From assembly GCF_056712565.1 (NCBI RefSeq), contig NZ_CM160072.1: a DNA stretch of 64,000 nt; one strand, given 5' to 3'. The notes below the pieces were generated by a model. That model did not search any database. It had not been told where the DNA came from and saw only the letters and a list, made by a program, of their open reading frames with translations. Every line of letters starts with the position of its first letter. The first letter of the stretch is position 1. The translations under genes and the position numbers were made by a program. Of this stretch, positions 15,501 through 54,787 are shown piece by piece.

Positions 15501-16787
15501 ATGAAACTCTACAATCTGAAAGATCACAATGAGCAGGTCAGCTTTGCGCAAGCCGTAACCCAGGGGTTGGGCAAAAATCAGGGGCTGTTTTTCCCGCACG
15601 ACCTGCCGGAATTCAGCCTGACTGAAATTGATGAGATGCTGAAGCTGGATTTTGTCACCCGCAGTGCGAAGATCCTCTCGGCGTTTATTGGTGATGAAAT
15701 CCCGCAGGAAATCCTGGAAGAGCGCGTACGCGCGGCGTTTGCCTTCCCGGCTCCGGTCGCCAATGTTGAAAGCGATGTCGGTTGTCTGGAATTGTTCCAC
15801 GGGCCAACGCTGGCATTTAAAGATTTCGGCGGTCGCTTTATGGCACAAATACTGACCCATATTGCGGGCGATAAGCCAGTGACCATTCTGACCGCGACAT
15901 CCGGTGATACTGGAGCGGCAGTGGCTCATGCTTTCTACGGTTTACCGAATGTGAAAGTGGTTATCCTCTATCCACGAGGCAAAATCAGTCCACTGCAAGA
16001 AAAACTGTTCTGTACATTGGGCGGCAATATCGAAACTGTTGCCATCGACGGCGATTTCGATGCCTGTCAGGCGCTGGTGAAGCAGGCGTTTGATGATGAA
16101 GAACTGAAAGTGGCGCTGGGGCTAAACTCTGCTAACTCCATTAACATCAGCCGTTTGCTGGCGCAGATTTGCTACTACTTTGAAGCTGTTGCGCAGCTGC
16201 CGCAGGAAGCGCGCAACCAGCTGGTTGTCTCGGTGCCAAGCGGAAACTTCGGCGATTTGACGGCGGGTCTGCTGGCGAAGTCACTCGGTCTGCCGGTGAA
16301 ACGTTTTATTGCTGCGACCAACGTGAACGATACCGTGCCACGTTTCCTGCACGACGGTCAGTGGTCACCCAAAGCGACTCAGGCGACGTTATCCAATGCG
16401 ATGGATGTTAGCCAGCCAAACAACTGGCCGCGTGTGGAAGAGTTGTTCCGCCGCAAAATCTGGCAACTGAAAGAGCTGGGGTATGCAGCCGTGGATGATG
16501 AAACCACGCAACAGACAATGCGTGAGTTAAAAGAACTGGGCTATACCTCGGAGCCGCACGCTGCCGTAGCTTATCGTGCGCTGCGTGACCAGTTGAATCC
16601 AGGCGAATATGGCTTGTTCCTCGGCACCGCGCATCCGGCGAAATTTAAAGAGAGCGTGGAAGCGATTCTCGGTGAAACGTTGGATCTGCCAAAAGAGCTG
16701 GCAGAACGTGCTGATTTACCCTTGCTTTCGCATAACCTGCCCGCCGATTTTGCTGCGTTGCGTAAATTGATGATGAATCATCAGTAA
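15501..16787 (+). CDS. thrC: Threonine synthase
   Basis: 428-aa ORF MKLYNLKDHNEQVSFAQAVTQGLG... with PLP-lysine region FHGPTLAFKDFGGRF. Confidence 0.97.
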   Translation: MKLYNLKDHNEQVSFAQAVTQGLGKNQGLFFPHDLPEFSLTEIDEMLKLDFVTRSAKILSAFIGDEIPQEILEERVRAAFAFPAPVANVESDVGCLELFHGPTLAFKDFGGRFMAQILTHIAGDKPVTILTATSGDTGAAVAHAFYGLPNVKVVILYPRGKISPLQEKLFCTLGGNIETVAIDGDFDACQALVKQAFDDEELKVALGLNSANSINISRLLAQICYYFEAVAQLPQEARNQLVVSVPSGNFGDLTAGLLAKSLGLPVKRFIAATNVNDTVPRFLHDGQWSPKATQATLSNAMDVSQPNNWPRVEELFRRKIWQLKELGYAAVDDETTQQTMRELKELGYTSEPHAAVAYRALRDQLNPGEYGLFLGTAHPAKFKESVEAILGETLDLPKELAERADLPLLSHNLPADFAALRKLMMNHQ

Positions 16788-16808
16788 CATCTATTCATTA
16801 TCTCAATC

Positions 16809-16844
16809 AGGCCGGGTTTGCTTTTATGCAGCCCGGCTTTTTTA
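16809..16844 (+). terminator. Probable thr operon terminator
   Basis: GCCGGG...CCCGGC stem followed by TTTTTT about 25 bp after the thrC stop. Confidence 0.55.
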
Positions 16845-17000
16845 TGAAGAAAATATGGAGAAAAACGACAGGGAAAAAGGAGAAATTCTCAATAAATGCG
16901 GTAAATTAGAGATTAGGATTGCGGAGAATAACAACTGCCGTTCTCATCGCGTAATCTCCGGATATCGACCCATAACGGGCAATGATAAAAGGAGTAACCT

Positions 17001-17297
17001 GTGAAAAAGATGCAATCTATCGTACTCGCACTTTCCCTGGTTCTGGTCGCTCCCATGGCAGCGCAGGCTGCGGAAATTACGCTAGTCCCGTCAGTAAAAT
17101 TACAGATAGGCGATCGTGATAATCGTGGCTATTACTGGGATGGCGGTCACTGGCGCGACCACGGCTGGTGGAAACAACATTATGAATGGCGAGGCAATCG
17201 CTGGCACCCATATGGACCGCCGCCATCGCCGCGCCATAACAAGCACAATGATCATCGTGGCGATCATCGTCCGGAGCCGGACAAACATCATCGCTAA
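17001..17297 (+). CDS. yaaX: His/Trp-rich small secreted protein YaaX (DUF2502)
   Basis: 98-aa ORF with GTG start, signal peptide ([23 protein letters not shown]) and a His/Trp/Arg-rich mature region. Confidence 0.85.
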
Positions 17298-17336
17298 ATA
17301 TCAATGCCGGATTACCATCCGGCATTGACTACAAAC

Positions 17337-18113
17337 TTAACGCTGCTCGTAGCGTTTAAACACCAGTTCGCCATTGCTGGAGGAAGCTTCATCAAAGAAG
17401 TAACCTTCGCTATTAAAACCAGTCAGTTGCTCTGGTTTGGTCAGCCGATTTTCAATAATGAAACGACTCATCAGACCGCGTGCTTTCTTAGCGTAGAAGC
17501 TGATTATCTTAAATTTGCCGTTCTTCTCATCGAGGAACACTGGCTTGATAATCTCGGCATTCAATTTCTTCGGCTTCACCGATTTAAAATACTCATCTGA
17601 CGCCAGATTTATCACCACATTATCGCCTTGTGCTGCGAGCGCCTCGTTCAGCTTGTTGGTGATGATATCTCCCCAGAATTGATACAGATCTTTCCCTCGG
17701 GCATTCTCAAGACGTATCCCCATTTCCAGACGATAAGGCTGCATTAAATCGAGCGGGCGCAGTACGCCATACAAGCCGGAAAGCATTCGCAAATGCTGTT
17801 GGGCAAAATCGAAATCGTCTTCGCTGAAGGTTTCGGCCTGCAAGCCAGTGTAGACATCACCTTTAAACACCAGAATTGCCTGGCGGGCATTCTCCGGTGT
17901 GAAATTTGGCTGCCAGTCATGAAAGCGAGCGGCGTTGATACCCGCCAGTTTGTCGCTGATGCGCATCAGGGAGCTAATCTGCGGGGGCGTCAGTTTCCGC
18001 GCTTCATGGATCAGCTGCTGGGCGTTGTCTAACAGCTCCGGCAGCGTATAGCGCGTGGTGGTCAACGGGCTTTGGTAATCAAGCGTTTTCGCAGGTGAAA
18101 TAAGAATCAGCAT
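17337..18113 (-). CDS. yaaA: Peroxide stress resistance protein YaaA (DUF328/UPF0246)
   Basis: 258-aa [31 protein letters not shown]...; matches YaaA. Confidence 0.92.
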
Positions 18114-53644: not shown

Positions 53645-54787
53645 TTAACGGTATTGCTTCAGCACCGCGCGACCCAGCGTCAGGATCTGCATTTCGTCAG
53701 ATCCTCCGGAAACGCGGTCTACACGCAGGTCACGCCAGAAGCGGCTGATGCGGTGGTTGCCCGCAATCCCGACACCGCCCAGCACCTGCATTGCGCTATC
53801 CACCACTTCAAATGCCGCATTGGCGCAGAAGTATTTGCACATCGCTGCATCGCCAGAGGTGATGGTGCCGTTGTCTGCTTTCCACGCTGCTTCATACAGC
53901 ATGTTTTTCATGGAGTTTAATTTGATCGCCATGTGGGCGAATTTTTCCTGAATCAACTGGAAACGACCAATAGCCTCGCCAAACTGCACACGCTGGTTGG
54001 CGTAGCGCGCCGCATCTTCAAAGGCGCACATCGCCGTACCGTAGTTGGTCAGGGCTACCAGGAAACGTTCATGGTCGAACTCTTCTTTGACGCGGTTAAA
54101 GCCGTTACCTTCCCGACCGAACATGTCTTTCTCGTCCAGTTCCACGTCGTCAAAGGTGATTTCACAGCAGCTATCCATACGCAGACCGAGCTTTTCAAGT
54201 TTGGTCACTTTGATGCCCGGTTTGCTCATATCAACAAACCATTCGGTGTAGACAGGTTTGTCCGGAGAAGCCCCGTCGCGCGCCATCACCACGATGTACG
54301 GGGTGTAGGCGCTGCTGGTAATAAAACACTTACTACCATTAAGATAAATCTTACCATTTCTACGGGTATAAGTCGTTTTCAGGCTACCCACGTCGGAGCC
54401 TGCGCCCGGTTCGGTAATTGCTGAGTTCCACATCTGCTTACCGGTGCCGCGGAAAGCCATAATCTTGTCGATCTGCTCTTGCGTACCTTCACGCAGGAAG
54501 GTGTTAAACCCGCCCGGTAACTGATACAGCACGTAAGTTGGCGCTCCCAGACGACCCAGTTCCATCCACACGGCGGCGAGAGTAACAAACCCCGCGTCCA
54601 GACCACCGTGCTCTTCAGGGATCAGCAGACTGTCGATACCCATATCCGCCAGGGCTTTGACAAAACGTTCCGGGTAGACGCTGTCACGGTCGCACTCGGC
54701 AAAATAGGCCTCCCAGTTTTCGCTGGCCATCAGTTCGCGGATACCGGCGACAAACAGTTCCTGCTCATCATTTAAATTAAAATCCAT
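53645..54787 (-). CDS. caiA: Crotonobetainyl-CoA reductase CaiA (acyl-CoA dehydrogenase family)
   Basis: 380-aa [34 protein letters not shown]... with ACAD fold features. Confidence 0.95.

Follow-up and report, generated by a model that had tools for sequence, protein, structure and literature searches.

YaaX of Escherichia coli, an exported small protein with a conserved Trp-rich core and a variable His-rich tail: a possible periplasmic binder in Rcs-signalled envelope stress

Genomic locus and gene identity

The window analyzed here, i.e., the whole stretch of 64,000 nucleotides from contig NZ_CM160072.1 (assembly GCF_056712565.1), carries the gene yaaX on its + strand at 17001..17297, where 98 codons plus stop, opened by a GTG start, encode a protein of the DUF2502 family. 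A first-pass annotation had picked out this open reading frame (ORF) as that of a secreted His/Trp/Arg-rich mini-protein, and its frame as well as the peptide quoted from it agree residue for residue with the present reading. Almost certainly, yaaX is a real, translated gene for a soluble, Sec-exported periplasmic protein of about 75 residues without Cys and without enzyme-like features, in which a folded core is followed by a disordered repeat tail and which, according to published transcriptomes, is induced via Rcs together with its paralogue ypeC.

Upstream of yaaX lies thrABC, and downstream the convergent yaaA is followed by yaaJ and talB; hence, the window corresponds to the beginning of the standard E. 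coli chromosome map, which identifies the gene as yaaX. In Enterobacter and Yokenella, too, the order thrC-yaaX-yaaA-yaaJ-talB is retained. The gene belongs to the yaaX orthologue group (E. coli b0005) by its location between thrC and the convergent yaaA as well as by near-identity to annotated yaaX, the K-12-type gene being found in the same place. A 553-bp yaaX region was matched in 5424 of 5426 complete E. coli genomes, with DNA of strain ZJ3920 being 100% identical to the window over these 553 bp; there, the gene is annotated as 'DUF2502 domain-containing protein', the label which matching E. coli records use besides yaaX. The Pfam profile DUF2502 (PF10697) matches residues 25-90 with 53.8 bits (gathering cut-off 27, E = 2.4e-14), and the protein displays the family's leader followed by IGDRDxxGxYWDGxxWR..WW, including all 16 invariant columns of the core. 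Gene and family are therefore already known, as are export and Rcs induction from literature and databases. On a side note, three of 5432 yaaX-region matches fall on plasmid-labelled records and some genomes hold two copies, which may reflect misassigned contigs or duplications.

The GTG start is preceded at a distance of 6 nt by the Shine-Dalgarno sequence AGGAG (16990..16994, + strand), and orthologues of other genera carry ATG instead of GTG at the aligned position. An ATG at 17010 was rejected as start codon because it lies 15 nt from the Shine-Dalgarno sequence and orthologues begin at the position of 17001. Likewise, the opposite-strand ORFs 17077-17325 and 17100-17291 were discarded, since conservation, leader and Pfam match all fit the + frame. 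The conserved promoter DNA at 16855-17004 also reads as an in-frame ORF of 49 residues ahead of yaaX. Some database entries, among them P0039 (172 aa) and P0056 (163 aa), run too far in the N-terminal direction through this ORF, owing to wrongly assigned start codons and not to a longer protein.

That yaaX is a fortuitous ORF or a gene in decay, its odd composition stemming from low-complexity DNA, could be argued from the repetitive, fast-evolving DNA of its tail and from the frameshifted tails of many database variants. Against this stand the near-universal occurrence in E. coli, the conserved synteny, the Pfam match and strong purifying selection on the core, along with regulated expression and ribosome occupancy reported in the literature. 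Compared with the K-12 allele, signal peptide and core together differ by three synonymous changes and one non-synonymous change (synonymous divergence dS 0.069, non-synonymous divergence dN 0.006). A non-functional ORF is thus refuted by the conservation data and retains practically no probability.

The transcription unit is monocistronic with terminators on both sides. Its upstream edge is formed by the thrC terminator, a hairpin with a T-run (16809..16844, + strand), read from the sequence as AGGCCGGG...CCCGGCT followed by TTTTTT and conserved in Enterobacter. Between the convergent yaaX and yaaA, a hairpin with a 12-bp stem (17301..17328; dG -19.1 kcal/mol, z -7.0 versus shuffled sequences) is likely the terminator common to both genes. 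A permissive Rfam scan of 16500-17700 gave no credible match.

Export and composition of the mature protein

The first 23 residues (17001..17069, + strand) constitute a predicted Sec-type signal peptide with cleavage at AQA|AE, as assessed by the -3/-1 rule and by conservation among homologues. The leader starts with the n-region MKKMQ, continues with a hydrophobic stretch (mean Kyte-Doolittle value of +2.4) and ends in the cleavage motif, so that positive n-region, hydrophobic h-region and small residues at -3 and -1 as expected for Sec export and signal peptidase I processing are all present. Among 87 distinct homologous leaders, 86 possess Ala at -1, 86 possess Ala, Val or Thr at -3, and 85 carry a net charge of +1 or +2 within their first seven residues. 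Moreover, strict conservation among homologues starts directly after the predicted cleavage site. Neither a twin-Arg motif nor a lipobox occurs in the leader and, as the mature protein lacks Cys, it is not a lipoprotein. Weak NCBIfam matches are limited to residues 1-28 and resemble the leaders of Spy and porins. The earlier description as a secreted mini-protein is thus well supported by a canonical and conserved predicted Sec leader.

Mature YaaX comprises residues 24-98, i.e., 75 amino acids, among which H (10), R (9), P (8), G (8), D (7) and W (6) prevail; this corresponds to 13% His, 12% Arg, 11% Pro and 8% Trp. As background, 13,642 windows of 75 residues from the 37 long ORFs of the window were used. 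His, Trp, Arg and Pro together make up 44% of mature YaaX (background mean 13%, maximum 28%), and His plus Trp account for 21% (background maximum 12%). The first-pass statement that these four residues dominate the mature region is fair but slightly selective, as Gly and Asp are equally abundant as Pro and Trp. The first-pass annotation took this composition as one single feature; in fact, Trp and Arg reside in a conserved folded core, while most His and Pro belong to a disordered repeat tail. The mature protein is highly hydrophilic (mean hydropathy -1.95; 10.7% Gly), and its computed charge rises for the window allele from +3.7 at pH 7.5 to +12.4 at pH 5.5.

The conserved Trp-rich core

Directly after the signal peptide follows a conserved core of 47 residues rich in Trp, Arg and Asp (17070..17210, + strand), delimited by an ungapped orthologue alignment and by AlphaFold2. 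In all, 120 close homologues were collected. Throughout 55 distinct cores of Enterobacteriaceae orthologues the first 47 mature residues align free of gaps with 16 invariant columns (E2, L5, P7, L11, I13, G14, D17, G20, W23, D24, G25, W28, R29, W34, Y38 and W45 in mature numbering), and H37 is the sole core His conserved at 90% or more. AlphaFold2, run on an alignment of 54 sequences, assigns a predicted local distance difference test score (pLDDT) above 90 to mature residues ~11-45, where a short helix (31-37) is followed by a hairpin (38-47). The core is therefore confidently predicted to be a small folded module built on the motif IGDRDxRGxYWDGxxWRDxxWW. Sequence and fold searches of the PDB with the core gave no structural relative; the only match of the sequence profile search, an antibody complementarity-determining region at E = 0.68, is noise.

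The His-rich tail

The remaining 28 residues (17211..17294, + strand) form a tail rich in His, Asp, Arg and Pro that is predicted to be disordered, with pLDDT values below 50 over the last 17 residues (mature 59-75). Among orthologues, the segment following the core is 23-49 residues long and cannot be aligned between genera. Its composition is kept: pooled over 86 orthologues, tails contain 29% His, 19% Asp, 15% Arg, 10.5% Pro and 9.7% Gly, and the His fraction of 89 distinct tails amounts to 0.29 ± 0.07 (range 0.14-0.45). Fixed net charge (R+K-D-E) of the same 89 tails, in contrast, spans -9 to +6 with a mean of -0.7. Since His content stays constant while fixed charge varies, it is His chemistry, i.e., metal chelation or pH titration, that appears to be conserved, and not a constant positive charge. 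Of the two options named in the first-pass annotation, metal and anionic-ligand binding, the latter is not conserved in the form of a constant positive charge. A constant His content without alignable sequence suggests selection for metal coordination or pH titration, being the outcome expected from it at the level of composition, and the 89 tails accordingly present a His-rich ligand-donor segment that would be conserved under selection.

Within the tails, His is mostly placed next to Asp. In 88 distinct tails HD, DxH, HxD and DxxxD are over-represented and HxH and DxD are depleted relative to shuffled sequences, a dipeptide and spacing pattern of period 4 whose z-scores are inflated by kinship of the sequences. 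In the window, the 12-nt tandem GATCATCGT at 17250 and 17262 encodes DHRG-DHRP, and the Escherichia marmotae homologue P0021 contains five xDHR units; Tandem Repeats Finder called no array in the tail, which holds two exact 9-mers only. Read in this way, the tail consists of degenerate tetrapeptide repeats, 12 nt each, in which His, Asp and Arg abound.

Many E. coli-type database entries (P0003, P0004, P0007, P0013, P0014, P0019, P0022 and others) carry a frameshift within the poly-Pro/His tract or immediately behind it and end in a hydrophobic C-terminus (...MIITAV... or ...IIVAIIV...). One such cluster has 141 members, and some of the entries derive from Mb-sized assemblies; these tails are either low-complexity sequencing errors or real slippage variants.

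Two tail haplotypes in E. coli

When E. coli genomes were searched with the 96-nt tail region (17205-17300), identity to the window tail turned out to be bimodal: 1385 genomes are at least 95% identical, only seven lie between 80 and 95%, and 3998 fall between 60 and 80% (~75-77% among the examples listed). The flanks of the tail are ~98-99% identical between both haplotypes. Relative to the K-12-type allele, three small indels are required to align the tail, and a dS of 0.71 and a dN of 0.14 result, an estimate based on only 25 alignable codons with ambiguous alignment. The type strain ATCC 11775 possesses the window-type tail, whose ending resembles the general Enterobacteriaceae ending ...HRPGPDWKHH, and the K-12-type tail ends in ...HHGGHGPGKHHR. 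Intermediate forms are found in other recovered homologues (P0012, P0015). We read the haplotypes as products of fast codon-repeat turnover, probably not of import from outside.

K-12-type genomes additionally carry an insert of ~112 bp between yaaX and yaaA, which consists of inverted units resembling repetitive extragenic palindromes (REP) and is flanked by repeated ATCCGGCATT. It sits just after the hairpin with the 12-bp stem (L001 2010-2161); in the window, the corresponding stretch 17298-17336 has the hairpin alone. In the sampled matches the REP-like insert accompanies the K-12-type tail.

Promoter and regulation

According to published K-12 transcriptomes, yaaX and ypeC are reported to belong to the Rcs envelope-stress regulon. 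Expression of yaaX increased 1.9-fold upon RcsB overexpression (PMC2731931) and by a log2 value of 4.1 after colicin M treatment, where it was listed among Rcs-regulated genes (PMC3599342). Inhibition of LolCDE raised yaaX 8-12-fold and ypeC 42-60-fold; yaaX was induced there alongside RpoS/osmotic genes and was annotated as 'RpoS stress induced' (PMC5105897). Furthermore, the promoter of a Serratia homologue was picked as Rcs reporter (PMC8470065). A proline-related ribosome pause detected in K-12 yaaX by Ribo-seq and iNP (PMC13410324) indicates that the gene is translated; the K-12 allele reads PPPPP versus PPPSP in the window.

Upstream of the gene, a putative activator site is marked by the block GATTAGGATTGCGGAGAATAAC (16911..16933, + strand), which hardly varies among E. 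coli, Enterobacter and Yokenella, whereas its flanks diverge. It includes an RcsB-type half-site, TAGGA (16914-16918, + strand). A candidate -10-like hexamer, TAATCT, lies at 16952..16957 (+ strand). E. coli and Enterobacter share the surrounding CGTAATCT, Yokenella reads TACGCT in the alignment there, and ypeC has CGTAATAT at matching spacing. In both E. coli paralogues a TARGA half-site (TAGGA in yaaX, TAAGA in ypeC) is located 36 nt upstream of CGTAAT, and TAAGAAT-type elements also precede other DUF2502 genes. Direct control by RcsB via this half-canonical site would be plausible. A simple sigma-70 scan called no + strand promoter at yaaX, as would be anticipated if the promoter has a poor -35 element and depends on an activator. 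A CpxR-like GTAAA-N5-GTAAA noticed by eye was rejected, because neither K-12 nor Enterobacter preserves its first half-site. The complete RcsB box consensus is TN(G/A)GAN4TC(T/C)NA (PMC7913699); one exact match occurs in the whole window, TAAGATAAATCTTA at 54340-54353, which is not significant alone given a chance expectation of 2.2 per window.

Hints at metal-related expression are few. In cusS gain-of-function mutants grown in lysogeny broth, yaaX is differentially expressed together with zraP, in lists that give no direction of change. Additionally, an earlier Rcs transcriptome included zinc excess among its growth conditions, a weak hint at best.

The paralogue YpeC and the DUF2502 family

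YpeC (E. coli b2390) shares with YaaX the plan of leader, core and tail, and its core is 71% identical to that of YaaX over 45 residues without gap. Like yaaX, ypeC is strongly induced when LolCDE inhibition activates Rcs; a difference is that ypeC is also a target of MarA/SoxS. Unlike that of YaaX, the YpeC tail is rich in Gly, Trp, Arg and Tyr and His-rich only at its end, the two tails being unrelated. The ypeC locus is the older one, as one- and two-repeat versions occupy the same locus in more distant Enterobacterales.

When 1.84 billion representative proteins were searched exhaustively with a profile, the DUF2502 family proved to be small, comprising 108 representatives at E ≤1e-3. Divergent one- and two-repeat members occur in the arrangement aldo-keto reductase-DUF2502, convergent Nramp (mntH)-nupC, on other contigs, and a third DUF2502 locus lies between ihfA and btuCED. 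The contexts examined, i.e., the thr operon, glk-mntH-nupC and pheST-ihfA-btuCED, are all of Enterobacterales type, with one non-enteric metagenome-assembled genome (MAG) as exception. In distant members, the motif IGDRDxRGxYWDGxxWRxxxWW is present once or twice in tandem, always after a leader, and the tails are His/Asp/Gly-rich, of PPPxW type, Gln/Gly-rich or Lys/Thr/Asn-rich; in a few cases, CPPGQAKKGRC forms the C-terminus. Because tails of distant members can be His-poor, the function common to DUF2502 must lie in the core: the Trp-rich module is the common denominator of the family, and the His-rich tail is a trait of the Enterobacteriaceae yaaX lineage.

The non-enteric case, MAG GCA_016218365.1 (L013 1-5375), encodes a two-repeat protein ending in CPPGQAKKGRC, a C-terminal Cys motif that recurs in P0104, P0107 and P0143. 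Its gene is the fourth after three lipoprotein genes (lipoboxes LAGC, AGGC and LSGC), one of which is weakly BamE-like, and the group adjoins a bufferin-type cluster with genes for an extracytoplasmic function (ECF) sigma/anti-sigma pair and BufA1-MbnB-HvfC-DoxX. Regarding gene order, both E. coli paralogues face a neighbour tail to tail, yaaX facing yaaA (17001-18113) and ypeC facing mntH (L008 6002-7707); yaaA and mntH are both OxyR-regulon genes that control metal pools during peroxide stress. Distant Enterobacterales retain the DUF2502/Nramp arrangement, which could be plain synteny.

Two alternative explanations draw on this family-wide picture. According to the first, which we regard as unlikely yet credible, YaaX would be a binder of envelope polymers, its core recognizing a glycan or phosphorylated component such as peptidoglycan, the lipopolysaccharide (LPS) core or lipid A, osmoregulated glucans or colanic acid. 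This component would be stabilized or shielded during Rcs-signalled damage, with the tail acting as a solubilizing or pH-tunable spacer. Such a role would fit the aromatic/Arg/Asp motif as family-wide invariant, present once or twice in tandem next to freely varying tails, and surfaces combining aromatic residues with Arg and Asp are typical of carbohydrate- and phosphate-binding modules. It would also suit the net cationic nature of the E. coli alleles, the position of the MAG gene behind lipoprotein genes including a BamE-like one, and Rcs itself, which senses LPS, peptidoglycan and lipoprotein defects and whose regulon contains the small periplasmic protectants Ivy, Spy and OsmB. Net charge is not conserved, however, and the constancy of ~29% His in Enterobacteriaceae orthologues is left unexplained.

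According to the second, YaaX would modulate signalling, its core binding a component of an envelope sensor (e.g., RcsF, IgaA or an outer-membrane protein) and thereby feeding back on Rcs or another pathway. The Enterobacterales-type context of every examined member except the MAG would agree with this, since Rcs is likewise not known outside Enterobacterales. Small induced periplasmic feedback proteins are moreover found in other stress pathways, CpxP being an example. This support is purely circumstantial, however, and the existence of two or three paralogues that answer to different regulators (MarA/SoxS in the case of ypeC) speaks against a dedicated Rcs feedback; we therefore deem this role very unlikely.

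Comparison with known systems

Searches of Pfam and NCBIfam returned no family besides DUF2502, NCBIfam offering no equivalog but leader look-alikes only. Homology to the known periplasmic metal-binding families ZraP, ZinT, CusF, SilE and RcnB was found neither by Pfam and NCBIfam nor by PDB sequence or fold comparison. ZraP, the N-terminus of ZinT, the His/Asp loop of ZnuA and SilE/PcoE are exported proteins or segments in which disordered stretches rich in His (and Asp) serve to bind Zn, Ni, Cu or Ag. The likeness of YaaX to these proteins consists in an exported His-rich segment and is compositional only. They are under metal-sensor control or encoded in metal operons, whereas yaaX is Rcs-controlled and stands alone; furthermore, unlike theirs, YaaX tails contain 15% Arg and neither Met nor Cys.

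Another group for comparison are Ivy, Spy, OsmB, YmgD and Bdm, which are likewise small, exported, Rcs-induced in the same experiments as yaaX, and act by binding and not by catalysis. YaaX has no homology to any of them, with Ivy being a lysozyme inhibitor and Spy a chaperone. For Spy/CpxP (LTXXQ), the NCBIfam Spy match is restricted to residues 1-28, i.e., the leader, and reaches only 11.8 bits (E = 0.22) versus a cut-off of 174. Asr, finally, is a basic, acid-shock periplasmic protein, disordered and rich in His and Lys. It shares with YaaX export, disorder, richness in His and a charge that rises steeply at acid pH, but it lacks a folded Trp-rich module and is controlled by acid-responsive systems and not by Rcs; no sequence similarity between both was found. 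By analogy, the mode of action of YaaX may resemble that of the exported His-rich segments in ZraP, ZinT, ZnuA or SilE, or that of Asr.

These resemblances also suggest a disordered periplasmic protectant or chaperone in the manner of hydrophilins, Asr or Spy, i.e., a hydrophilic polyampholyte without specific ligand which would prevent aggregation of envelope proteins or guard membranes under acid, osmotic and cold stress. The low hydropathy and Gly content given above, the predicted disorder of the tail and the induction together with RpoS/osmotic genes after LolCDE inhibition are in line with this, as are the upregulation of a DUF2502 gene by a log2 value of 5.4 after 4 weeks in soil at 4 °C and the role of ypeC as multi-stress hub gene. 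The strongly conserved and confidently predicted fold of the core with its invariant Trp, Arg and Asp, however, points to a specific interaction instead of bulk physical chemistry. Together with the lack of Spy/CpxP homology beyond the leader, this makes an unspecific protectant rather improbable.

Proposed function

Tentatively, and as a possibility rather than a probability, we favour YaaX as a non-enzymatic periplasmic binder whose core docks to an envelope partner and whose tail chelates divalent metals or switches its charge with pH. His content that is kept without charge or sequence favours His-specific chemistry, and with it the tail as working part for metal or pH. YaaX would then act stoichiometrically as a binder in envelope stress. 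The conserved core would mediate docking to the envelope partner, and the His/Asp tail would be the working end, chelating Zn2+, Ni2+ or Cu2+ in the periplasm. Below ~pH 6.5, titration of His would turn this tail from near-neutral to strongly cationic. Hence, the protein would buffer metal or charge at the envelope once the barrier is compromised.

Several observations weigh against such a binder. An Arg content of 15% is unusual in cation-binding His-rich segments, tails of distant DUF2502 members are without much His, and even within E. coli the mature protein carries 10 His in the window allele versus 13 in the K-12 type, with acidic residues differing as well. Neither a measurement of metal binding nor a metal-responsive regulator of yaaX (Zur, ZntR, ZraR, CusR, NikR, RcnR) is reported in the literature found, and no metal transporter is co-transcribed with the gene. 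The cusS-mutant lists also hold thrL, thrA, thrB and thrC, so that the yaaX signal may be read-through from the thr operon. Moreover, no RcsB box within two mismatches of the consensus occurs in 16788-17000; hence, Rcs control could be indirect.

An extended proposal, which we consider speculative and rather unlikely to hold in full, would regard DUF2502 proteins as a class of their own, periplasmic effectors under Rcs control that are almost restricted to Enterobacterales. Here, an orphan Trp-rich fold would dock to an envelope component and a His/Asp tail of tetrapeptide repeats would act as sensor or buffer for zinc-type metals or pH, the two deeply diverged tail haplotypes of E. coli being kept by selection, e.g., by metal or pH niches in the host, and not the result of neutral turnover.

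Significance

On the E. coli map, yaaX is among the very first genes, and it occurs in essentially every strain. Nothing previously known is overturned by the present analysis; the gene is real and the finding an ordinary one. What is added is the dissection into modules, His rather than charge as conserved property of the tail, the tetrapeptide-repeat nature of this tail, and the two deep haplotypes in E. coli. The module split directs testing, in that the core should be probed for a partner and the tail for metal or pH, with two natural tail alleles being available for comparison. Knowledge of the ligands of YaaX and YpeC would fill a gap in the enteric response to damage of the outer membrane, of peptidoglycan and of lipoprotein trafficking, including damage caused by antibiotics.
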